Sequence record: OQ703618.1
Origin: Escherichia phage GADS24
DNA: 64,000 nucleotides
Direction: 5' to 3' (one strand)
The position numbers and the translations under genes were made by a program. Below the pieces are notes generated by a model. The model was not told the origin of the DNA, did no database searches, and saw only the letters and a program-made list of their open reading frames with translations. Below are positions 2,793 to 12,192 of the stretch, piece by piece (position 1 is the first letter of the stretch; each line of letters begins with the position of its first letter).

Positions 2793-3074
2793 CTATTTTT
2801 CTGAAGCGCCTGAAATATATTTTTCAAGACGTTGTTTCATCAGCGAGCCGTTCTTAGCGATTTCTTCCGGTTTATCGCACATACGCAACAAGGCTTCAAG
2901 CTTAACGATATCGCTGGTACGTTCAAATTTGCGAGTATCTATCTTACTAGCAAGTTCAGAAATACGTGCTAATAGACTTTCGGCTTCAACCAAAGCTGCA
3001 CCTAGCTTAGTTGCAAATGTGTCAGTAGCTTCGTTAAGAATAGATTCTGATAAAAATTCACTATATGTTTTCAT
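2793..3074 (-). CDS. internal protein (IP)-like, capsid-targeting N-terminus
   Basis: Begins [10 protein letters not shown] at ATG 3072-3074, overlapping the e stop (ATGA); ORF track has a 5-codon upstream extension. Confidence 0.65.
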
Positions 3075-3559
3075 ATATACGCTTTCCAAGTTCCTGTTTT
3101 AAATGTTGAGATTACGCGTTTCGCGCGATTAGGTGTCTGACGATACCATTTAGATTGGGCTAGATTTACTGCCGCTTCATCCCAACGTTTCTGTTGAAGC
3201 ATACGAAGAGAATTAGTAAAACCAGCGACGCCTGCTACACCCATTTGGAAGACCATATTGACCAATGCACATCGACGAACCGCATCTAAAGAATCATATA
3301 CCGGTTTAAGTTTAGCATTACCCAAGATTCCGCGAACGGCTTTATCAACGTCTTCATTAAATAGCTTTTCAGCCTCATCAAGGGTAATTGTACCGTTGCA
3401 TTTACGTCCGATCATTCTGTCAAGTTCAGCTTTAGCTACGGCTAAAGACGGGTTCTTTGTTACTAAATGGCCTATGCCAATCGTCCAAAAGCCTTCAGTG
3501 TCTTTGTATAAAGACAGTCTAAGACCTTCGTCATTACGAAGCATTTCAAATATATTCAT
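3071..3559 (-). CDS. e: endolysin (T4 lysozyme, muramidase)
   Basis: [15 protein letters not shown]...TIGIGHL...TGTW near-identical to T4 lysozyme; start at MNIF ATG (3557-3559) with GGGAGG SD. Confidence 0.95.
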
Positions 3560-3596
3560 AATACCTCCCACGTTTATAGGAGGTATTTATTACTTA
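3560..3596 (-). promoter_or_regulatory. RBS-sequestering stem-loop upstream of e with TATAAACG/TATAAGTA late-promoter-like motifs
   Basis: 8-bp inverted repeat ATACCTCC (3561-3568) / GGAGGTAT (3578-3585) includes the e Shine-Dalgarno; minus strand carries TATAAACG in the loop. Confidence 0.45.
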
Positions 3597-4052
3597 TAGG
3601 AGGGTAGTGAGCACCTTATATAATGATTTGCCCATTACATATTCCCATTGAGAAGGTTTAATTAAAGCGAATGCATCAAATTCAGGAATCTGTCGTCCGT
3701 CTGGGAAGGTATGATAGGAATTACAAACACTGTTTCTGAATTGCTCGTGCTCTACAGGGATGGTATATAGGAACAGATGAATATTCTTATTGTCTGAGTA
3801 ATGATGTTCACCTAGGTCTTTCAGGAAGGCAGGGACATATTGTGTGAACCCAGTTTCTTCTTCGCATTCACGAATAGCGGCTTCAATAGGAGATTCACCG
3901 GGCTCGACACGACCTTTAGGAATATCCCACCGATGAGCTAAAGAACCTTTAGGACGAGAACCAGTTACACGCCCCATGAATAATTCTTTATCTTCTGTAA
4001 GGAAAATAATACCGGCCGATAGTTCTTTCACTTTATTTTTCTTACTCATCAT
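3594..4052 (-). CDS. nudE: Nudix hydrolase
   Basis: Nudix box GRVEPGESPIEAAIRECEEETG (Gx5Ex7REUxEExGU); immediately downstream of e on minus strand as in T4. Confidence 0.85.
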   Translation of the reverse strand: MMSKKNKVKELSAGIIFLTEDKELFMGRVTGSRPKGSLAHRWDIPKGRVEPGESPIEAAIRECEEETGFTQYVPAFLKDLGEHHYSDNKNIHLFLYTIPVEHEQFRNSVCNSYHTFPDGRQIPEFDAFALIKPSQWEYVMGKSLYKVLTTLL

Positions 4053-4278
4053 CTCGGTCCCATGATTTGGACATTAATTCGGACATAAATTCTTCAATGC
4101 GCGTTTCTTTAGATGGACTTTCACTATCAGATATTTGGACCATATAATCAGAAATAGGTCGGAACATATCCAAGTCGCTTTCTAAATCTTCTTTGATTTT
4201 CTCTTCTGACGTTCCGGTATCATAGGAATACAGATAAGAATCACATGATTCTGATTTAATGTAAATTGCTATACTCAT
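4042..4278 (-). CDS. hypothetical small acidic protein
   Basis: ORF track 4042..4293; likely start at ATG overlapping upstream TGA (ATGA) with AGGAA SD. Confidence 0.4.
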   Translation of the reverse strand: MSIAIYIKSESCDSYLYSYDTGTSEEKIKEDLESDLDMFRPISDYMVQISDSESPSKETRIEEFMSELMSKSWDRDDE

Positions 4279-4766
4279 CTCAAATTCCTGCATTCGGTAA
4301 TAAAACGTTCAACTTCATTATTCTTGGCTTTTATCTTGTCTTTACGTTCCTGTAAACTACTTTTAATAAGACTAATAATGATGCCTATAGTACCTCCACC
4401 AATAATACCACCAACAACACTTATGATACTAGATGCTAATAAGATAGCGATAATATCAACAAAACCGAAAGAACTCACCTTAGTACTAAAAAACCATACC
4501 GACGGTACAAATATAATCCATCCTGTTATCCATTGGCACTTATTGAAAAACTTTTCAAGCTCAGCTTGAGTTGTTCGTATTACTTCATCGATAGGTTGAT
4601 ATCCATTAATGTATCTGTTCACGATAATACCTGCTGGCTGGTCGATTTTAAATTCTTGGCAAATACGTTTCACTAAGTAGGATGGACATCCTGTCCAATC
4701 TACTGAATAGTATGAAATACCTTCATTGCCATCGTCTATATTAGACCAATATGTTTTGTTAATCAT
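4275..4766 (-). CDS. hypothetical membrane protein with C-terminal FIxECR tail
   Basis: Hydrophobic, Gly-rich C-terminal half; ends ...ERFITECRNLR; start overlaps upstream stop (TAATG). Confidence 0.5.
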   Translation of the reverse strand: MINKTYWSNIDDGNEGISYYSVDWTGCPSYLVKRICQEFKIDQPAGIIVNRYINGYQPIDEVIRTTQAELEKFFNKCQWITGWIIFVPSVWFFSTKVSSFGFVDIIAILLASSIISVVGGIIGGGTIGIIISLIKSSLQERKDKIKAKNNEVERFITECRNLR

Positions 4767-5452
4767 TACCAGCCTTCCATAGGGAATTCCAGATAAACTT
4801 GAGCATTGACACGAATTTCATTGGTAATCTTTTTAACTCGGTCTGTATTACGAGATACACGTCCGAACCAACGCCACCCATTACTAATTGCACGAGAACC
4901 AGTGTGCCATGTTTGCCAATCAAACTGAAGAAGAGTACGATCTGGAGCTTCCCATTTCTCTAGTTCACCTTTTTCAATTTTTTCGAGGACTTCTTTGTGC
5001 CACTGACGATAGATAAGTTCGCCATCAGGAATCTGACTGAACTCTGCAGTTCCTGTTGCAAAATGAGTAGGACACACGTCAGCGTTAACAAGACCAAGAA
5101 TATGTTCAGAATGGTAACGAGGGTTATCATAATCAGGTTGTCCTGCAGTAATAAAGTGTTGACCAACCGGAATATCCGGTCGTGGTACATCATCATGGTG
5201 ATAACCTGGGATAGCAGGGTACCAACCAGGCATCAGCATGTGGACTCGTGAATCAAATACAACCTGGTCGGTGTTCCAATCATCTGGCAAGTTCATGATG
5301 AAGCTGCGAGTAATAGGACCACCATTATTATAAGCAAATTCTAAACTACAGTTGAAGAACATAGGCTCGTTTTTAATCTGGTCATTTTTAATCGCGTGAG
5401 CAAAACCACCTACTGCACGAGCTTGACTATTAAACACTTTAGAACTATTCAT
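4766..5452 (-). CDS. hypothetical protein, His/Asp-rich (possible metal-binding)
   Basis: 228-aa ORF containing GYHHDD...H...H; GAGG SD. Confidence 0.5.
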   Translation of the reverse strand: MNSSKVFNSQARAVGGFAHAIKNDQIKNEPMFFNCSLEFAYNNGGPITRSFIMNLPDDWNTDQVVFDSRVHMLMPGWYPAIPGYHHDDVPRPDIPVGQHFITAGQPDYDNPRYHSEHILGLVNADVCPTHFATGTAEFSQIPDGELIYRQWHKEVLEKIEKGELEKWEAPDRTLLQFDWQTWHTGSRAISNGWRWFGRVSRNTDRVKKITNEIRVNAQVYLEFPMEGW

Positions 5453-5453
5453 A

Positions 5454-5759
5454 TTATTTTCCTCGACATTCTTTAATGAAATTTTCTAGATTGGTAGATT
5501 CAATAGCTTTTTTACGAGCTTCTGCGTGTTCTTCTTCGGACAATTTACGTTTATAATTGACCCAGACATTATGGTCGAAACCAGACGTGGCATATAATAA
5601 CAAAGCTCCGACGAATAATAAAAACGGTGATAAGAATACAAAACCAGGAACACCATCCATATCGTAAGCCTTTTGTAATACTGCAACAGAAAGAGATGCG
5701 TAAAAAGGTGATGCAAGTATTGTTAAAAGACCGATTCGATTGGTTTCTGTTAATTTCAT
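5454..5759 (-). CDS. hypothetical membrane protein with C-terminal ENFIKECR tail
   Basis: Two predicted TM segments; ends ...LENFIKECRGK; CATGAGGAGAATATT-ATG RBS; promoter/stem-loop cassette upstream. Confidence 0.5.
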   Translation of the reverse strand: MKLTETNRIGLLTILASPFYASLSVAVLQKAYDMDGVPGFVFLSPFLLFVGALLLYATSGFDHNVWVNYKRKLSEEEHAEARKKAIESTNLENFIKECRGK

Positions 5760-5826
5760 AATATTCTCCTCATGTTTTAATAGGACTACTATAACATAGT
5801 CCTATAATTGTGTAAACAGTTTTGTG
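5760..5826 (-). promoter_or_regulatory. PeSL-like early promoter/stem-loop cassette
   Basis: Minus strand: GTTTAC (rc 5812-5817), 18 nt, TATAGT; 8-bp perfect inverted repeat TAGGACTA (5781-5788)/TAGTCCTA (5798-5805); conserved RBS CATGAGGAGAATATTATG. Confidence 0.55.
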
Positions 5827-5829
5827 AAG

Positions 5830-6786
5830 TTATTTGAAAGGTTTTACCATATGGAAATTTTGTTTGAAACGTTTGACGTAATCGTCATGTCCTAAGCTTT
5901 GGTACATACTTACTACTTTGCTGTAGTTTTCCCAGGCATACTCACGGAACCAGCCGGAGGTTATGCTTGTGCAGACTTTTTCTAATGCCATCATAAAACT
6001 GGCTTCAGGGTTAATTTTAAAGTCATTAGGAATCTGAGAACGTTCTAATGCTAGTACACATGATTCTTCATATACACCGGCCAATTTGACCATTTCTGGT
6101 AATGATTCGAACTTCTCGCGTGAGGTCATGACTTCAGAACCGTCTTTCATATAAAATGTATACGCTGGCCGGTCTGTTAGTGCAATGGCTTCATGAATAG
6201 TATCATGGTCATATGTATAGATGTCATCTTTAAAGAACGCACTTTTAGAAGTGTCAAGAACTGGGTGAGCATAGTTCAAGGTTTCTTTCTGGCGTTTCAG
6301 CATAATTTCAGTAAGTTCATCGTTCAGTGTAACACCTTTACCACGAAGATACTGAATATGGTTCATAGTCTTTAAAAAGAATGGATTATTTTTCTTGAAA
6401 CGATGAGACATCTTAATTGCAAGACATATCTCAGGAGTTGCCCAATAAAACCCGGTCAAACGATCTTTAGTCAAATTTTTCTTGGCGTATTTTAAAAGGT
6501 CATAAGAAGACGTGAAATCTTCAGGAGTGAGTTCACCTACTAATTCGCGGACATTAGTGATTGCCGGAACAATATATGCTTCAAAATGAGTTTCGCGTCC
6601 ATTATGGAAGCATTTGAAAACTTGGACATCAGGGTTATCTTGATGAACATATACACCCATCATTTGATTTTTGAATGCATTCCAAGAACCTTGGTCTGCA
6701 ATAAAGTCCCAGTCACTATTTTTGATAGCGTTAGAATCAATAAGACCATGATAGTGAAGTGCACGAGAACCAATAACTAACATCAT
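5830..6786 (-). CDS. hypothetical protein with nucleotidyltransferase-fold-like N-terminus
   Basis: 318 aa; N-terminus LVIGSRALHYHGLIDSNAIKNSDWDFIAD resembles the hG[GS]...[DE]h[DE]h pol-beta NTase signature; GAGGAAAATATT-ATG RBS. Confidence 0.5.
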   Translation of the reverse strand: MMLVIGSRALHYHGLIDSNAIKNSDWDFIADQGSWNAFKNQMMGVYVHQDNPDVQVFKCFHNGRETHFEAYIVPAITNVRELVGELTPEDFTSSYDLLKYAKKNLTKDRLTGFYWATPEICLAIKMSHRFKKNNPFFLKTMNHIQYLRGKGVTLNDELTEIMLKRQKETLNYAHPVLDTSKSAFFKDDIYTYDHDTIHEAIALTDRPAYTFYMKDGSEVMTSREKFESLPEMVKLAGVYEESCVLALERSQIPNDFKINPEASFMMALEKVCTSITSGWFREYAWENYSKVVSMYQSLGHDDYVKRFKQNFHMVKPFK

Positions 6787-6814
6787 AATATTTTCCTCGG
6801 ATTAATTCATTAAC

Positions 6815-7054
6815 TTAAATTTCACGACATGCGATATTATATTCATCCCAGAGGTCATCATGTGAAGCCTCTACCAATGGAACGATTGTACCATTTATGT
6901 CTTCATTATAAGGGCAAATTGTGCAGTGTGCATCTTCAAATCGGATGCCTTTGTGTTCAGATTTTTTATAACGCATATCGAATATCTTTGCAAACTTTTC
7001 ACGAGTAATGGTTTTACCAACCACTTTAGTTCCTATACTTTCATAATAAATCAT
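6815..7054 (-). CDS. hypothetical protein
   Basis: ORF track 6815..7066; start likely at MIYY ATG with GGAG SD. Confidence 0.4.
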   Translation of the reverse strand: MIYYESIGTKVVGKTITREKFAKIFDMRYKKSEHKGIRFEDAHCTICPYNEDINGTIVPLVEASHDDLWDEYNIACREI

Positions 7055-7066
7055 TGTGGACTCCAT

Positions 7067-7116
7067 TTAATTTGATAGGACTACTATAACATAGCCCTAT
7101 CTTGTTGTAAACTGTT
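7067..7116 (-). promoter_or_regulatory. PeSL-like early promoter/stem-loop cassette
   Basis: TGATAGGACTACTATAACATAG core shared with cassette at 5781; GTTTAC (rc 7107-7112); imperfect stem TAGGACTA/TAGCCCTA. Confidence 0.5.
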
Positions 7117-7314
7117 TTAGCAAGAATAACTAGACGATACCCAGCCTTGAACAGTGATACTATTGTTGGATAATGAGATCGCGTTCTGGAGATTCAGACC
7201 TGCGTTATCTTCAATCCATAATGTAACTTCTTCGCGTTCTTCTGTTGCAATTTGGAACAGGTTTTCCAGAGCAGCTACTGCCGTACGTACAGCACAATCT
7301 AATTCACGAGACAT
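7117..7314 (-). CDS. small protein, GW[VI][SA]SS..C paralogue family member
   Basis: Ends ...QGWVSSSYSC; similar to the next two ORFs. Confidence 0.45.
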   Translation of the reverse strand: MSRELDCAVRTAVAALENLFQIATEEREEVTLWIEDNAGLNLQNAISLSNNSITVQGWVSSSYSC

Positions 7315-7323
7315 ATGATTTCC

Positions 7324-7596
7324 TTAGCAAGTGTGAGAAGATGCAATCCAACCACCAGTTTCGAGGCTCAGGTTGTAGTCGTATTGGTAAACGTCGGCCC
7401 ATTCAGCATAGCCGTTTTTTGTACAACGTTCAAGATCGGCTTTAAGCTGTCCGGGTGAATGATAAGTTCCACCCATACCATAAGCTGGATACAAGTCGAA
7501 TGTTGTGTTTTGTTTATCAGCGATTTCTTTGGCAGCCTCAATAGCTGCATAGATTTTTGCTACAGCTTCAGCCAGTTCGGTTTGTTCTTTAGACAT
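7324..7596 (-). CDS. small protein, GW[VI][SA]SS..C paralogue family member
   Basis: Ends ...GGWIASSHTC; junction TGCTAAGGAAATCATATG. Confidence 0.5.
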   Translation of the reverse strand: MSKEQTELAEAVAKIYAAIEAAKEIADKQNTTFDLYPAYGMGGTYHSPGQLKADLERCTKNGYAEWADVYQYDYNLSLETGGWIASSHTC

Positions 7597-7605
7597 AATG
7601 ATTCC

Positions 7606-7911
7606 TTAGCACAAAGCAGAAGACGAAACCCAAGCACCTTCAGTAATAACGTAACCATTACCTTCACGCTTAACATCGCCACCATTATTTTCAATTTCAT
7701 TTTTCATCCACTGGGATACGATTTCACCCTTAGGATAATAAGTACGACCGCTACCATAATCACCTACAGAAAATGATACGGCATATTGGTCTGCGATCTT
7801 TGTTGCTTCTTCTTCGATACGTTCAGCTTGATTCAGAAGTTTATAAATTGCATCTGAAGCGGATTTGGCATCGTTAAACTCTGGTACTTTAATTTCAATA
7901 ATCTTACTCAT
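7606..7911 (-). CDS. small protein, GW[VI][SA]SS..C paralogue family member
   Basis: Ends ...GAWVSSSALC; start overlaps upstream stop (ATGA). Confidence 0.5.
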   Translation of the reverse strand: MSKIIEIKVPEFNDAKSASDAIYKLLNQAERIEEEATKIADQYAVSFSVGDYGSGRTYYPKGEIVSQWMKNEIENNGGDVKREGNGYVITEGAWVSSSALC

Positions 7912-8267
7912 TTTCTACATTCCTTAATAAAGTTTTCGATTGTTTCATTTTCACGTTTAGCTAAAAGTTCATTATAACTAACCATTTGAGAAGCGTAAAC
8001 CTTTTTATTTTTCTTGTTATGGTTTATAAAATCGTAGTAAAAATAGACTACAGTACAAAATGATGCGATGGATGCAAAGGCTTGGGTATACCGTAAGTCC
8101 TGCCATTGGTCTGTGAATCCACCAGTGTTCCCTATAAATCCTAACACAACGCCGTCAATAAGAAATCCAACTAATCCAAAGGCAAATCCCATGCCAATAC
8201 TCATAATAAAAATTAGAATGTTCTCACCAAGAGAAGGCCGTACGGTTAAGAGTTGAGGCTTTTGCAT
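7908..8267 (-). CDS. hypothetical membrane protein with C-terminal ENFIKECR tail
   Basis: Hydrophobic N-terminal half; ends ...IENFIKECRK. Confidence 0.5.
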   Translation of the reverse strand: MQKPQLLTVRPSLGENILIFIMSIGMGFAFGLVGFLIDGVVLGFIGNTGGFTDQWQDLRYTQAFASIASFCTVVYFYYDFINHNKKNKKVYASQMVSYNELLAKRENETIENFIKECRK

Positions 8268-8641
8268 CTTATTTCCTTAACGAATTCCATAGCTTCTTCG
8301 TATTCATACTTTTTAACAGCTTCATTATACTGAGCTTGGGCTTTTGCGCACTGAACTTTCCATTCTCTTAATCTGGCTCTGTGATGTCGTCCTTGGTACC
8401 AATATCCCACCCAGTTAATAGGCATTAATAAAAATGGTACAATAAACGACCCGGGTATAATAAGTAAAAACACTGCATCAGACGATATAACTCCACTAGA
8501 ATCTAAAACAGCTCCTATAATCATAAAGATTAAAAATGCTAAAGCTAAAATAGGGCCAAACAACACTTCATTAGGAATTAATTTACGTTTGTATTCGTAT
8601 GCCCAGGGCTTAATTGGCATGTACAGGGTTGGCTTTGACAT
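8246..8641 (-). CDS. hypothetical membrane protein
   Basis: ORF track 8246..8671; start moved to ATG 8639-8641 (MSKPTLY) with GGAATGTAGAGAAT SD region; hydrophobic core; ends ...EFVKEIRCKSLNS. Confidence 0.45.
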   Translation of the reverse strand: MSKPTLYMPIKPWAYEYKRKLIPNEVLFGPILALAFLIFMIIGAVLDSSGVISSDAVFLLIIPGSFIVPFLLMPINWVGYWYQGRHHRARLREWKVQCAKAQAQYNEAVKKYEYEEAMEFVKEIRCKSLNS

Positions 8642-9215
8642 ATTCTCTACATTCCATAATAAATTGCTCAAGGATTAAATTGTTAGTGAAATTAGGACTA
8701 ACAACCATGGTTTCATAAAGCGCATCAATAGCACTTAAAGCATCAACTCTCTTAAGCAAAGGCTTGCCTTCATACATAGTTTCAGAATCGACGATTAATG
8801 TAAAGTAATATTTTTTATTATCGACTAGAACTTCAGTATCGATATAAAACATGTTAGACCTTAAAAGCTTATCTCTAAAGCCTATGTAATCATCTGAACG
8901 TTCGCTGATATATTCCCATTCAGTGTTTAAACAACAAACAGACCATGTAGGAGCAACGAAATCAGTAAATCTAATATCATGGTCTGCAACTAGTTTAGCA
9001 ATAGCTCCGATATCATGAATCATAATACCTGGGGCTAATAAAGATTTTCGGTTATTTGCATATTCAGTTGTCTCATAAGAAGACGACCAGTACCATTTAC
9101 GTCCAGTTGCAACATATCGTAATGAATCAACTAAAGACGTAGGTGGATTTACCTTATTTCGGAACTCTTCGAACATTGAGTCAATATCATTATTTTGGTT
9201 TCGCATGTTAACTCC
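8610..9215 (-). CDS. hypothetical protein
   Basis: ORF track 8610..9227; start moved to ATG 9213-9215 with AAGGAG SD; C-terminal region contains EQFIMECR. Confidence 0.5.
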   Translation of the reverse strand, partial: GVNMRNQNNDIDSMFEEFRNKVNPPTSLVDSLRYVATGRKWYWSSSYETTEYANNRKSLLAPGIMIHDIGAIAKLVADHDIRFTDFVAPTWSVCCLNTEWEYISERSDDYIGFRDKLLRSNMFYIDTEVLVDNKKYYFTLIVDSETMYEGKPLLKRVDALSAIDALYETMVVSPNFTNNLILEQFIMECREYVKANPVHAN

Positions 9216-9228
9216 TTTATTATCCAAA

Positions 9229-9247
9229 AGGAGGACCGGAGTCCTCC
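9229..9247 (-). terminator. GC hairpin (GGAGGAC-CGGA-GTCCTCC), candidate terminator
   Basis: 7-bp stem with tetraloop between genes 9256..9849 and 8610..9215; short T-run follows on minus strand. Confidence 0.35.
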
Positions 9248-9255
9248 GTATTATT

Positions 9256-9849
9256 TTATTTCAAAGAGTTAATATATTCTTGTACATCAGCAGAAGTGGT
9301 TTCGACACCAGCTGGAGTGCCATTGAACGTTTCAACACGAGTCAGAGTGTCTTCGATATCAACCTTAGTCAGTGCAGCGATTTCAATTACATCATCAGCC
9401 GTAGAGATACCAAGGGCATTGGCTGCTCGAGTTTCACGAATGTATTCGAGTTTGATTGCCAGATTCTGACGAGCATCATCAAGTTCAACCACCTTACGAG
9501 CAATTTCAATTCGCATAGCAGCATACCCGTCAGCTTTTGTATTAAGTTGTTCGGCAGTTCGACGATACAGAAGACCAAGCTTAGCATGCATGGTAACATC
9601 TTGTCCTTCAGCCAGGAGCTTACGAATTTCACGTTCCTTAGAAGCGGCTTGTTTGTTCTTTTCATTAACAAGTTCGCGAATACGTTTTTCTTCATTAATA
9701 GATTTAACAGAAGCCGTTTTTAGTTCTTTGATCTGGGTAATCAACTTATCTGCAGCTGCGTTATACTGTTCTTCGACAGTCAGATTTTTAGCCATAGCAG
9801 TACCCAGTTTAGTGCGGATGAATTCAACAAGTTTCTTCAGTGTGTTCAT
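9256..9849 (-). CDS. hypothetical coiled-coil protein
   Basis: Start at MNTLKK ATG (9847-9849) with AAAGGT SD; composition strongly helical/charged. Confidence 0.5.
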
Positions 9850-9884
9850 ATTATTACCTTTCAATTGGTGGTTTATTATCCAAT

Positions 9885-9919
9885 GAGAGCATTATACTCT
9901 GCTCTCAAGAGTTTGTAAA
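9885..9919 (-). promoter_or_regulatory. sigma70-type promoter (TTTACA-17-TATAAT) with -10 inside a stem-loop
   Basis: Minus strand TTTACA (rc 9914-9919), 17 nt, TATAAT (rc 9891-9896); stem GAGAGC (9885-9890)/GCTCTC (9901-9906) encloses the -10. Confidence 0.5.
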
Positions 9920-10147
9920 TTATTTTTTAATCAAATTGACATAAAATTCTGCATCTTCAGGGTGCATGCCTTCGCAGTATTCTTCAACCATGAACTTCTT
10001 AACAGCTTCATAAGGACCACTCAGATTAAGCTCAGTTGTCCAGAACTTGGAATCTTGGACTGAATCGATACGAACTTCAGGGTGACGGTTGCGAATAACT
10101 TCTTCTGTGTATTCATAATCAACGACATCAATACTAACTGTAGCCAT
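9920..10147 (-). CDS. hypothetical protein (75 aa)
   Basis: ORF track; GAGGAAAAC SD; promoter cassette upstream. Confidence 0.45.
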   Translation of the reverse strand: MATVSIDVVDYEYTEEVIRNRHPEVRIDSVQDSKFWTTELNLSGPYEAVKKFMVEEYCEGMHPEDAEFYVNLIKK

Positions 10148-10210
10148 TTTGTTTTCCTCTTGATTTGATAGGACTACTATAACATAAACTTACTTAGATG
10201 TAAATTATTT
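10148..10210 (-). promoter_or_regulatory. PeSL-like cassette (degenerate stem)
   Basis: TGATAGGACTACTATAACATA core (10167-10187); ATTTAC -35-like (rc 10199-10204). Confidence 0.4.
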
Positions 10211-10358
10211 CAACGTCACCTTTAGCTGCTTTATAACCTTCAGCCCAAGATACAACAGAGTTTTTATCTGAGGATTCAAATTCAGGCATTGGACTTTCAC
10301 CAATATTCACACAGTATGTTTCTTCATTTTCATCGAACCAAATAATTAAAGTAGTCAT
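10194..10358 (-). CDS. hypothetical small protein (54 aa, below ORF-track cutoff)
   Basis: ATG 10356-10358 preceded by GAGGAG SD inside the 43-nt cassette shared with 47260..47302; translation MTTLIIWFDENEETYCVN... Confidence 0.35.
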   Translation of the reverse strand: MTTLIIWFDENEETYCVNIGESPMPEFESSDKNSVVSWAEGYKAAKGDVEIIYI

Positions 10359-10398
10359 TTTGTTTACTCCTCTGTAGTTGATAAGTCTATAGTATCAC
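10356..10398 (-). repeat. 43-nt cassette identical to 47260..47302 (-10/RBS/start-codon module)
   Basis: CATTTTGTTTACTCCTCTGTAGTTGATAAGTCTATAGTATCAC is identical at both loci; minus strand reads ...TGATACTATAGACTTATCAACTACAGAGGAGTAAACAAAATG. Confidence 0.8.
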
Positions 10399-10425
10399 CA
10401 TCCTTGGTGCTTGTACATCATTATT

Positions 10426-10731
10426 TTAATTTTTCCAACTTAACAACTTGTAGTATCCTTCATTCATACGTGGTTTATCCCAAGAAATACTAATATATGA
10501 TTCACTGTCAATAGAAGTCGCCGGGTTTTTCTCTACCGTAAGACCTTCACTTTCCAGCCATTCAATAGTATTTGCGCATAAATCTGAAGAACACCTAATC
10601 GGAAACCGGCAAGATTTTTCACCTTTAGCTGCAGTGTTATACATCTTTTCTAAAATACGCTTTTGCACGTTTTTAAAAATAGTTTCGGCAGATTCTTCAG
10701 ATTTTTTATTCAGTTCAGTGTAAAGACTCAT
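10426..10731 (-). CDS. hypothetical protein (101 aa)
   Basis: ORF track 10426..10773; start moved to ATG 10729-10731 with CATGAGGAGAATATT RBS identical to that of gene 5454..5759. Confidence 0.5.
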   Translation of the reverse strand: MSLYTELNKKSEESAETIFKNVQKRILEKMYNTAAKGEKSCRFPIRCSSDLCANTIEWLESEGLTVEKNPATSIDSESYISISWDKPRMNEGYYKLLSWKN

Positions 10732-11847: not shown

Positions 11848-12192
11848 TTATTTTGGCATATCATCAATTTGCTCTCGACGCCGACGCCATAGATTAATCG
11901 CTTCATAAACACATTCAGCATTTGGTATATGGCGACAATAGTATAGTGATTCGCGTTTCTGGAATCGATGTTGTAATGGAATTTCGTTTAAAAGGTCTTT
12001 ACGGTCAAAGTATTCAAAACTAGTTAACCCGGAACGGTTTTTAAGAAACTTCCAATGGCCGAATTCATTTTGGAAATAAACGTAATCAGCGTGTTGATAT
12101 AACGAATTAATCAACCGGTCGGAAATAACTGTATCCTGTTCGTTAAAATAAAACGTTAAATCATGAACTACTAGATAAATATTGCCTTTCAT
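11848..12192 (-). CDS. hypothetical protein (114 aa)
   Basis: ORF track 11848..12240; start moved to ATG 12190-12192 (MKGNIYL) with GTGAGGAAAAT SD so it does not overlap tRNA-Arg. Confidence 0.45.
   Translation of the reverse strand: MKGNIYLVVHDLTFYFNEQDTVISDRLINSLYQHADYVYFQNEFGHWKFLKNRSGLTSFEYFDRKDLLNEIPLQHRFQKRESLYYCRHIPNAECVYEAINLWRRRREQIDDMPK

Follow-up and report, generated by a model that had tools for sequence, protein, structure and literature searches.

The 64-kb window analyzed in this study (the whole stretch of DNA that was examined) belongs to a Mosigvirus, an RB69-like T4-type phage. The five tailed open reading frames (ORFs) that a sequence-only reading had listed were all found, on the minus strand, and they correspond to homologues of e.2, RB69ORF133c, e.3, e.4 and e.5 (Table 1). 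The start of the e.5 homologue was moved to the ATG at 9206, which is kept in relatives, because no start codon is present at the earlier coordinate, 9215. Two hydrophobic segments (possibly three in e.2) followed by a Lys/Arg-rich stretch were found in four of the five proteins and none in e.5, which agrees with the earlier statement that four of the carriers are membrane proteins; in e.2, an N-terminal soluble domain precedes the two to three transmembrane (TM) segments and the tail. Judged by the positive-inside rule, the Lys/Arg-rich stretch behind the TM segments would place the tails of the membrane proteins in the cytoplasm. In the PHROG and Pfam results, each window protein matched a family of its own clearly and over its full length; these families are separate and all without assigned function, and none in the results examined linked the carriers or flagged a common tail.

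Table 1. Positions of the tailed genes and neighboring features in the window.
Feature	Position	Strand	Product	Family	C-terminal tail	Motif codons
e.2 homologue	4275..4766	-	163 aa	phrog_2203	...VERFITECRNLR-stop; also given as ...NNEVERFITECRNLR	4287-4310
RB69ORF133c homologue	5454..5759	-	101 aa, 2 TM	phrog_9798	...LENFIKECRGK-stop; also given as ...STNLENFIKECRGK	5463-5486
PeSL-type elements	~5776-5830 and 7066-7112					
e.3 homologue	7908..8267	-	119 aa, 2 TM	phrog_2330	...IENFIKECRK-stop; also given as ...NETIENFIKECRK	7914-7937
e.4 homologue	8246..8641	-	131 aa, 2 TM	phrog_2604	...MEFVKEIRCKSLNS-stop (variant); also given as ...EEAMEFVKEIRCKSLNS	8267-8284 (FVKEIR)
e.5 homologue	8610..9206	-	198 aa, soluble	phrog_2607, PF26876	...LEQFIMECREYVKANPVHAN-stop; also given as ...NNLILEQFIMECREYVKANPVHAN	8646-8669
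e.6	9256..9849	-	197 aa, predicted long helical hairpin		look-alike C-terminus	9259-9285
Frd.3-like ORF	9920..10147	-	75 aa		...DAEFYVNLIKK	

The tail comprises approximately 10 residues with the consensus Φ(L/I/F/V)-[E/N/D]-x-[F/W]-[I/V]-x-x-C-R-(K/R/E/G). Its strict form, E.F[IV].ECR, matched 4 times in the 127,996 six-frame positions of the 64 kb, with 0.0017 matches expected from residue frequencies (Poisson P ~4e-13; none in 40 shuffles), and all four matches lay 1-11 codons upstream of the stop of a long ORF; a chance origin of the motif in the window is excluded. In the e.4 variant, F-V-K-E-I-R, the register is unchanged and Cys is replaced by Ile, and tails of the e.4 ortholog group read FVKE[I/S]R or FIKEVR. 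Only seven contiguous genes of the 64-kb window (4275-10147) fitted a loosened tail pattern; besides the five carriers and e.6, the sole further ORF among them, the Frd.3-like one, is an uncertain member of the tail family.

The breadth of the motif was surveyed with the pattern [FW][IV]xxCR in 1,541 ORFs from 38 related loci. The 107 matches all lay within 20 residues of the C-terminus, with none elsewhere, and all but one mapped 0-7 kb downstream of the e.6 start, giving 2-5 such proteins per phage. Moreover, two positions outside the search pattern were also restricted, position -3 being L/I/F/V/M in 74 and position -2 being E/N/D in 62 of the 80 distinct tails. The distance from motif to stop varied from 0 to 15 codons, a basic residue after the Arg was common, many tails ended in basic residues, and in several families the Cys position, with the register unchanged, was taken by I, M, V, A or S (FIKNVR, FVMEMR, FIQGIR and FIESAR). 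The motif is real, and it is specific for the C-terminal position and for the e.6-side cluster. The observation behind the sequence-only reading is confirmed, the shared tail being wider than had been claimed, and its interpretation is partly supported; no earlier description of the tail was found in the literature searched.

The tails lie close to the starts of the following genes. The e.2 stop overlaps the next ATG (4278) as ATGA, the e.3 ATG (8267) falls at the e.4 tail, and the final 11 e.5 codons overlap the e.4 start (ATG 8641). It had been proposed that the KECR codons double as the Shine-Dalgarno sequence of the next gene. This applies to e.3 and e.4, where AAGGAA, the K-E codons, stands 8 nt and 5 nt, respectively, upstream of the next ATG (7911 after e.3), but not to the other three genes: in e.2 and ORF133c the Shine-Dalgarno sequence, (G)AGGAA, is formed by the motif Arg codon and the following codon (GAGGAA in the post-motif Arg-Gly-Lys codons of ORF133c, with the next gene starting at 5452), and e.5 offers just a weak GGAA or GAG. 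These arrangements, together with the tightness of most junctions (median of 8 nt from the motif Arg codon to the next ATG among 99 distinct junctions), would suit a constraint at the RNA level, in which the codons are kept as the Shine-Dalgarno sequence and A/U-rich start of a coupled gene and the peptide is a by-product. However, only the synonymous sites vary. Among the 80 distinct tails, both Cys codons (TGC 42, TGT 38), both Phe codons (TTT 57, TTC 23) and all six Arg codons (CGT 27, AGA 21, AGG 17, CGA 7, CGC 7 and CGG 1) occurred, with up to five Arg codons in one ortholog group alone. Furthermore, the would-be Shine-Dalgarno residues, the two middle positions of F-I-x-x-C-R, were the most variable, K-E being one of many pairs. 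The next ATG was located from -7 to +84 nt relative to the Arg codon, and in about 12 of the 99 junctions it lay at least 45 nt away with its own promoter and Shine-Dalgarno sequence; in Aeromonas phage AS-gz, a gap of 80 nt follows the 3' end of the tagged gene. No Rfam match was found. An RNA-level constraint is therefore largely refuted and is extremely improbable. The free synonymous variation, the free middle residues and the variable start spacing place the selection on the tail at the amino-acid level, independent of the ribosome-binding site. The earlier claim that conservation goes beyond the needs of ribosome binding thus holds, since codons vary while residues are kept, and a full explanation by the ribosome-binding site fails. 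The same variation in pairs and spacing, including the AS-gz gap, contradicts the suggested co-evolution with translational coupling; the overlap of tails with next starts results from tight packing of genes around a C-terminal peptide and is not why that peptide is conserved.

The peptide might also act while still in the ribosome, where pausing or arrest would tune termination-reinitiation or the exposure of the downstream start and, in the membrane carriers, could respond to membrane insertion. SecM, MifM and VemP are regulatory arrest peptides of this kind, known as monitoring substrates. They resemble the membrane carriers in layout, being small membrane-targeted proteins with an N-terminal TM segment and a conserved C-terminal motif a few nucleotides before the next start, and the common sequence of Cys, Arg and a basic residue would also be in keeping with such a signal. 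However, the identical tail is carried by soluble proteins, neither its distance to the stop nor that to the next start is fixed, no hairpin sequestering the ribosome-binding site is apparent, and the motif is present also where no coupled gene follows. Moreover, a ribosome paused at Cys-Arg would mask rather than free most downstream starts, and a nascent-peptide signal is accordingly quite improbable.

The tag carriers in the 38 loci fell into approximately 17 BLAST groups by body sequence, soluble as well as 2-TM. The soluble carriers, of 92-273 aa, include the e.5-type protein, whose gene came after e.6 in all phages examined. Once the tails were stripped, most groups had no detectable homology with one another, and few profile-profile links were obtained (e.4 with c98 and e3likeB; e.5 with e5likeA). 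The carriers do not, as had been thought, form a family of small membrane proteins; since proteins of that class diverge fast, the bodies may nevertheless share ancestry. Within body-defined ortholog groups, the motif was kept in essentially all full-length members. In the alignment of 35 e.5-type sequences, which had a mean column conservation of 0.39, F-i-x-x-C-R was the best-conserved window, and the only columns conserved at 90% or more were F, C, R and one Asn.

Of all genes in the cluster, e.6 is the best conserved, and a tagged e.5-type gene always follows it. This pair was found in Tequatrovirus, Mosigvirus, Dhakavirus, Kanagawavirus and others, and in other genomic contexts in Aeromonas AS-gz (tail EMFVDYCRR) and in Pseudotevenvirus GAP161 and CfP1 (tail EKFIHSCKK). 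Across distant lineages in which F, C and R are invariant, e.6 identity is just 31-55%. In addition, the C-terminus of e.6 itself has a look-alike design, Φ-x-acidic-aromatic-[IL]-x-x-Φ-basic, with Leu at the Cys position; a generalised pattern fitted the e.6 tails of 26 of 26 loci and none of 771 background ORFs.

The tail is probably the end of an amphipathic α-helix with Φ, Phe, Ile/Val and Cys on one face. The positions of these residues (i, i+3, i+4 and i+7, then Arg) are compatible with a helix, and in an AF2 model of e.5 a helix at residues 177-192 spans the motif with moderate confidence (model pLDDT of 62); when the hydrophobic moment of the five tails in the window was tested, only that of e.3 was significant, and a fold search with the e.5 model gave no informative match. 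We propose that the tail is a shared docking or assembly helix, apparently undescribed, on early proteins of T4-like phages whose genes lie between e.6 and nudE, a proposal that stands about an even chance of being correct. Each phage has one soluble e.5-type protein and several 2-TM inner-membrane proteins whose tails would face the cytoplasm; the tails would bind one common site, which could lie within the tagged proteins themselves or on a single partner from phage or host, and so join the soluble carrier or carriers to the membrane-bound ones in a membrane-associated complex early in infection. Within genomes, concordance at the residue before Cys was detected (P ~0.002); it came largely from three related T-even lineages and therefore lends weak support to co-evolution with a partner. 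A comparable logic is known from the PspB/PspC-PspA and ESCRT-III/Vipp1 systems, in which small proteins of the inner membrane expose amphipathic helices to the cytoplasm and are encoded beside a long helical-hairpin protein; in the cluster, the predicted long helical hairpin is e.6. A single-sequence AF2 model of e.6 was indeed a hairpin with Vipp1/PspA as best PDB fold matches, but the Foldseek E-values (0.005-0.1) fall short of significance, and a helical hairpin is a shape that many folds resemble. Sequence similarity of e.6 to PspA_IM30 was not found, and the PspB/PspC tails, unlike those of the cluster, are not known to carry F-I-x-x-C-R.

Cys is an odd residue for a contact that is hydrophobic only, and the fact that it hardly varies is a hint of chemistry outside the docking model. 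Cys-Arg might serve as a metal ligand (shared Zn or Fe-S), a redox or thiol site, or the target of a modifying enzyme, and such chemistry could also be the means by which docking tails join. Both residues are invariant in approximately 17 groups amid variable neighbors, and the cluster also contains another family, whose members end in W-[VI]-S-S-S-x-x-C-stop; the two features both suggest a thiol-based function. However, whole families exchange Cys for I, M, V, A or S (such as FVKEIR and FVKESR in e.4), the e.6 look-alike has Leu, T4 retains the tails without having the SSxxC family, and no redox or metal domain was detected. A function centered on Cys is rather improbable.

The capsid-targeting sequence (CTS) of T4, MKTYxEF[IL]xE, is the N-terminal leader (MKTYQEFIAE) of internal proteins; it sends soluble proteins to the prohead, and the gp21 protease cuts it at [IL]-x-E, after the invariant Glu. 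Like the tail, it is a short conserved peptide on unrelated, rapidly exchanged phage proteins with an F-[IL]-x-E core behind an aromatic or hydrophobic and an acidic residue. The CTS genes are neighbors of the tail cluster, and the conserved DNA that encodes the leader also serves as a handle for recombination when cassettes are exchanged. The tail could accordingly be imagined as a sorting or degradation signal, a C-terminal counterpart of the CTS or a tag for a host protease. The T-even tails, Φ-[EN]-x-F-I-x-E|C-R, do resemble the Y-x-E-F-[IL]-x-E leader of the same loci, internal-protein genes flank the cluster, and the basic ends of many tails would suit a tag. Nevertheless, the CTS is N-terminal, cleaved and devoid of Cys-Arg, whereas the tail is C-terminal with an invariant Cys-Arg, and the Glu required by gp21 is not kept outside the T-even lineages (Q, G, Y, H, M, S, N and others). 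The carriers are mostly early integral membrane proteins, improbable as capsid cargo, and 0-15 residues to the true C-terminus are atypical for C-degrons. A sorting or degradation role is very improbable.

The tails might, finally, be a relic of descent, in which tandem duplications and the in-frame recombination of cassettes spread one ancestral gene end, which has no shared present-day function and evolves slowly under the double constraint of coding and of the neighboring start region. The strict clustering and adjacency of the carriers, the varying number of tagged genes (2-6 per phage), the profile links between some groups and directly observed recombination between tails are in its favor. 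However, F, C and R do not vary even among lineages with strongly diverged e.6, although synonymous changes there have reached saturation, a combination that requires lasting purifying selection on the peptide; even without an overlapping start region, the motif is kept, and it is the best-conserved segment of the e.5-type family. Descent without function is thus unlikely. The start region of the next gene lies within the tail DNA or right beside it, and this DNA, being repeated, has served as a junction for in-frame loss, and probably gain, of cluster genes. The promoter-stem-loop (PeSL) cassettes, repeated elements of the hyperplastic regions of T4-type phages (PMC2839356, PMC4122927), are likewise short gene-boundary repeats of the same kind of variable region, through which genes are gained and lost as modules, and elements of this type occur in the cluster. 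They are non-coding promoter/terminator units kept as DNA, whereas the tail is coding and is kept as a peptide with divergent codons. One recombination event at the tails was shown: in locus L011, e.2 has been precisely deleted via a crossover within TGCAGGAAA, which is common to the e.3 and e.2 tails.

In the window, the sequence-only reading had described five open reading frames (ORFs), now identified as e.2, RB69ORF133c (ORF133c), e.3, e.4 and e.5, as one family of small membrane proteins sharing a C-terminal tail. The tails were found again when the sequence was reread, and the motif is not a product of chance: when all 64 kb were translated in six frames, E.F[IV].ECR matched four times, compared with 0.0017 expected and none in 40 shuffles, and all four matches lie 1-11 codons upstream of the stop of a long ORF. 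A loosened tail pattern recovered only seven ORFs in the whole 64-kb window, which were contiguous from 4275 to 10147. Hydropathy agreed that four of the five are membrane proteins: ORF133c, e.3 and e.4 have two transmembrane (TM) segments each, and e.2 has two or three; e.5 is soluble, and its ORF was retained with the start moved from 9215 to the ATG at 9206, which is kept in relatives. Because a Lys/Arg-rich stretch follows the TM segments, the tails of e.2, ORF133c, e.3 and e.4 are predicted to be cytoplasmic by the positive-inside rule. The idea of a single family did not hold, since pairwise BLAST of the five window proteins aligned only their last 9-30 residues. Nor are all carriers small membrane proteins, as soluble carriers of 92-273 aa without a hydrophobic segment were present in every phage examined.

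The stretch 4000-9300 showed 95-97% identity to the genomes of Mosigvirus (RB69/JS09-like T4-type phages), and gene names were assigned through annotated relatives and T4 itself; every gene of this region is on the minus strand. Each of the five window ORFs gave a full-length significant profile match to its own ortholog group, and the gene order from e.6 through the tagged genes to nudE and e was the same in the window, in annotated relatives and in T4. ORF133c was restricted to Mosigvirus-type phage records from E. coli and Shigella. Database matches (PHROG and others) placed each window protein in a separate family without a function, and scans of ten cluster proteins with Pfam, NCBIfam and PADLOC returned only DUF7275/DUF7277 on a 318-aa neighbour and no function for the five ORFs. 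The label 'sulfurtransferase', which a few GenBank records (e.g. vB_Eco_F27) give to the 2-TM protein e.4, was rejected as annotation noise without family-scan support. In the e.2-e.8 block of T4 and its relatives, the sole function assigned is that of nudE (e.1), a Nudix hydrolase (PMC9503650).

Locations of the features discussed, in window positions unless another locus is named
Feature	Position	Strand	Remarks
e.2	4275-4766	minus	phrog_2203, E 6.6e-54
RB69ORF133c	5454-5759	minus	phrog_9798, 4.3e-65
e.3	7908-8267	minus	phrog_2330, 1.8e-49; tblastn match to T4 e.3
e.4	8246-8641	minus	phrog_2604, 4.3e-60
e.5	8610-9206	minus	phrog_2607, 4.1e-94; tblastn match to T4 e.5
e.6	9256-9849	minus	flanks the tagged-gene cluster on one side
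nudE	3594-4052		flanks the cluster on the other side
lysozyme e	3071-3571		flanks the cluster on the same side as nudE
ORF resembling internal proteins	2793-3089	minus	has a capsid-targeting leader; adjoins lysozyme e
228-aa soluble protein	4766-5452	minus	inside the cluster; phrog_1843; 76-89% identity across genera; absent from T4
318-aa soluble protein	5830-6786	minus	inside the cluster; DUF7277 and DUF7275; well conserved; absent from T4
Proteins ending G-x-W-[VI]-S-S-S-x-x-C	7606-7911, 7324-7596, 7117-7314	minus
The same, in two related loci	L004 2183-3221; L008 4935-6558
Paired stem-loops	about 5776-5830 and 7066-7112	minus	overlap T4-type early promoters
Further promoters of similar sequence	9919-9891 and 10204-10176
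GC-rich hairpin and T-run	9230-9247		between e.6 and e.5; terminator-like on both strands
Split e.2 of T4	L002 (MT984581.1) 6360-6847
Precise deletion of e.2	L011 (IMGVR_UViG_2974787500_000001) 11880-12010		Tequatrovirus
e.4/e.3 internal deletions	L003 (PTE-Eco05) 5629-6090; L010 11240-11700		Mosigvirus
e.4 labelled 'sulfurtransferase'	L043 5045-5440

A search of T4 found the same tails on its e.5 (...EKFVKECREYVK...), e.4 (...KFVKESRCK...) and e.3 (...KEFVIDCRKIK), and NNFITECRKLK is encoded directly upstream of nudE. In the T4 record used, an A-run of e.2 has lost 1 nt and the gene is split (A5 versus A6 in other Tequatroviruses, where intact e.2 has 162 aa); the annotated T4 e.2 is a protein of 102 aa without the tail, the tail-coding part falls in the 'intergenic' stretch before nudE, and the annotated nudE start (MQEIKM...) is an ATG within the Glu-Cys codons of the e.2-tail sequence. 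Anchored on an alignment of e.6, 34 loci with an e.6 identity between 100% and 55% were fetched from IMG/VR, and annotated loci of Dhakavirus, Kanagawavirus and others were added. Among 1,541 ORFs of 38 loci, [FW][IV]xxCR occurred 107 times; every occurrence lay within 20 residues of the C-terminus, and, with a single exception, the gene bearing it begins 0-7 kb downstream of e.6. Each phage had 2-5 strict carriers plus variants, and these comprised soluble e.5-type proteins (154-273 aa), small soluble proteins (92-162 aa) and many 2-TM proteins (88-197 aa). Wider searches yielded little: a tail profile (query of at least 40 aa, E up to 10) against a set of 5.8 billion proteins gave 12 candidates with four weak matches, all e.5 fragments, and so offered no view of the motif beyond T4-like phages; an e.3 search of the same set found close relatives only; and an HMMER search of 1.84 billion representatives, seeded with the e.5 alignment, gave five matches, all e.5, and no distant relatives.

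With the tails removed, the carrier bodies fell into about 17 BLAST groups, and profile-profile comparison by hhalign gave links within e.4/c98/e3likeB and within e.5/e5likeA, whereas no further pair reached a probability of 35%. In ortholog groups built from the body alone, essentially every full-length member retained the motif. The best-supported reading is that the tail is a C-terminal tag at the level of protein: a short amphipathic helix in which Phe, Ile/Val, Cys and Arg do not vary, found on soluble as well as membrane proteins that are unrelated to one another but encoded in a single early gene cluster. That the tail is instead a relic of common descent without any shared function appears unlikely. 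Literature searches on e.3-e.6, T4 small membrane proteins, promoter-stem-loop (PeSL) cassettes and phage PspA turned up papers on PeSL cassettes but none that describes the tail. Across many Straboviridae genera, most products of the e.2-e.8 region share this conserved C-terminal tag.

The makeup of the motif was derived from 80 distinct tails. Relative to the aromatic residue at position 0 (F, or W in some families), position -3 was L/I/F/V/M in 74 of 80 tails and position -2 was E/N/D in 62 of 80; position +1 was I (63), V (14) or L (3), positions +2 and +3 (x1 and x2) were free, with K-E just one among many pairs, and C and R at +4 and +5 were often followed by K, R, E or G at +6. The hydrophobic positions -3, 0, +1 and +4 have the i, i+3, i+4, i+7 spacing of one α-helix face. 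In agreement, an AF2 model of e.5 predicted, with moderate confidence, a helix over residues 177-192 that includes F182-R187; a hydrophobic-moment test on the window tails reached significance for e.3 only. The tail was the single most conserved window of the highly divergent e.5-type family, and in the e.2 family it equalled an N-terminal motif in this respect. Variant families replaced Cys with I, M, V, A or S and kept the register (FVKEIR, FIKNVR, FVMEMR, FIQGIR, FIESAR), and Arg was replaced by K in FIKECK. The window e.4 tail, M-E-F-V-K-E-I-R-C-K, corresponds to FVKESR in T4 and FIKEVR in Dhakavirus. This comparison shows that e.4 has the motif in an unchanged register, where I, S or V replaces Cys, and not a shifted Cys-Arg. 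A role of the tail in cysteine chemistry, which would be compatible with the tag reading, seems quite improbable.

The sequence-only reading had also proposed that part of the motif doubles as the Shine-Dalgarno sequence of the next gene and that the tail co-evolves with translational coupling. The doubling was correct for e.3 and e.4; at e.2 and ORF133c the Arg codon together with the following codon provides the Shine-Dalgarno sequence. Its further statement that conservation extends beyond the ribosome-binding site (RBS) was upheld, because the codons vary synonymously. The Cys codons were TGC (42) and TGT (38), the Phe codons TTT (57) and TTC (23), ATT, ATC and ATA were all used for Ile, and all six Arg codons occurred (CGT 27, AGA 21, AGG 17, CGA 7, CGC 7, CGG 1), five of them within the e.2 family alone. 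The positions that would hold AAGGAA were the most variable of the motif, and the place of the next ATG ranged from 7 nt within the motif to 84 nt past the Arg codon. About 12 of 99 distinct junctions had this ATG at least 45 nt away, preceded by a Shine-Dalgarno sequence of its own or by an early promoter, and the Aeromonas phage AS-gz has an 80-nt gap after a tagged gene. A scan of 3000-10500 against Rfam gave no family match. It is therefore extremely unlikely that RBS constraint alone explains the conservation, as neither conserved synonymous sites nor a fixed spacing to the downstream start codon was seen. The overlap with start regions thus reflects tight gene packing around a C-terminal peptide, and the proposed tie to translational coupling was abandoned. 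Control of downstream translation by the nascent peptide would resemble the arrest peptides SecM, MifM and VemP in layout; however, the e.5-type and other soluble carriers have no TM segment, unlike what those peptides require, and the tail spacing is not fixed, which makes this explanation very unlikely.

For the tag reading, the most economical mechanism would be a common docking or assembly helix. The tagged proteins would bind the same site, either on each other or on one partner, and in this way the 2-TM proteins would hold the soluble e.5-type protein, and possibly e.6 as well, against the inner membrane on its cytoplasmic side. A soluble tagged protein directly followed e.6 in all 14 representative loci tabulated, from about a dozen lineages. 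The e.6 and tagged e.5-type pair was also present, among nrd genes, in the Tulanevirus AS-gz (...RIEMFVDYCRR...) and in the Pseudotevenviruses GAP161 and CfP1 (...MEKFIHSCKK...), where none of the other downstream genes examined had the tail; the pair is therefore the conserved core. The shared tag and the constant pairing of e.6 with a tagged e.5-type gene unite about 20 orphan families, unrelated to each other, in a single system open to testing, for which a single tag peptide could serve as bait, mutational target or search key.

The e.6 protein, called a 'host specificity protein' in some GenBank records, ends in [VIL]-x-[ED]-Y-[IL]-x-S-L-K. The pattern [LIVFM]..[FWY][ILV]..[CLIMV][RK] was present in its last 14 residues in 26 of 26 loci, compared with 0 of 771 ORFs outside the cluster. 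Despite this look-alike tail, e.6 is not translationally coupled to e.5, because a terminator-like hairpin (GGAGGAC...GTCCTCC, then a T-run) lies between them. In a single-sequence AF2 model of e.6, helices 2-80 and 86-161 form a long hairpin (pLDDT >90 for residues 30-130), whose best Foldseek matches in the PDB were Vipp1/PspA of the ESCRT-III superfamily at a non-significant E of 0.005-0.1; this predicted likeness is a lead only. At the sequence level, an identification of e.6 as PspA had no support: Pfam, including PspA_IM30 and Snf7, gave no match even at E up to 10, and hhalign gave a probability of 0.2% against an E. coli PspA sequence that may be approximate. A bolder alternative takes e.6 as a phage PspA/Vipp1 (ESCRT-III-like) polymer and the tails as copies of its C-terminal helix. 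The tagged 2-TM proteins and one soluble e.5-type protein would then be interchangeable plug-in adaptors, whose F-I-x-x-C-R helix would enter the groove that normally takes the Y-[IL]-x-S-L-K helix of the neighbouring e.6 subunit, so that plugged tails would anchor, nucleate or cap the polymer at the inner membrane. As a whole this is rather unlikely. If true, the e.6-nudE region would be a modular phage-borne system of membrane remodelling or maintenance, with adaptors exchanged through recombination at the tag.

In a Tequatrovirus (locus L011), a crossover inside the 9-nt TGCAGGAAA (Cys-Arg-Lys) that the e.3 and e.2 tails have in common has removed e.2 precisely: the left side of the junction matches the e.3 tail and the right side the e.2-nudE junction, and the hybrid tail ...FVIDCRKLK joins the nudE start directly. 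Repeated tail DNA can thus remove a gene in frame with coupling to the next gene preserved. In some Mosigviruses (PTE-Eco05 and phiE142-type), internal deletions in e.4 and e.3 removed the TM regions and left both tail-coding ends intact. Recent gene conversion among tails is argued against by the divergence of tail codons within one genome. Within genomes, only x2 was concordant (P about 0.002; Glu in T-even genomes), and this is weak evidence because the T-even lineages that drive the signal are related. The tail coding sequence doubles as an in-frame recombination junction, a property that bears on the way in which hyperplastic regions can acquire and shed genes while reading frames and translational coupling stay intact.

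The capsid-targeting leader of T4 internal proteins, MKTYxEF[IL]xE, is N-terminal and has its cleavage Glu at [IL]-x-E. In concept it is the nearest analogue of the tail: both are shared terminal peptides on exchangeable proteins, and the leader Y-x-E-F-[IL]-x-E, with its F-[IL]-x-E core, resembles the T-even tail Φ-[EN]-x-F-I-x-E. They differ in terminus, cleavage Glu and cargo. An ORF with such a leader adjoins lysozyme e in the window. That the tail itself is a degron or a capsid-targeting-like signal is highly improbable; all 107 occurrences lay within 20 residues of the C-terminus, whereas the leader directly follows Met, and of 80 distinct tails only 27 had E at x2, the counterpart of the cleavage Glu. 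A gp21 cleavage site or leader analogue was set aside, as the x2 Glu is not kept outside T-even lineages. After this leader, the tail is a second case in which T4-type phages put one short terminal peptide to repeated use. PeSL cassettes, non-coding elements with an early promoter in a stem-loop, have been described for T4-type hyperplastic regions (PMC2839356, PMC4122927). Like the tail, they have a role in modular shuffling; the tail, however, lies inside coding sequence, and PeSL-like elements sit elsewhere in the cluster. Two near-identical stem-loops (TAGGACTA...TAGTCCTA) with PeSL architecture overlap early promoters GTTTACA-N17-TATAGT, and similar promoters occur at two further sites of the window.

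A second tail family was observed in the same cluster. It consists of small soluble proteins ending in G-x-W-[VI]-S-S-S-x-x-C-stop (WVSSSALC, WIASSHTC, WVSSSYSC), of which T4 has none, whereas phages of Mosigvirus, Dhakavirus, Kanagawavirus and others have 3-5 copies each. Their stop is often TAA followed by GGA, the Shine-Dalgarno sequence of the next gene.
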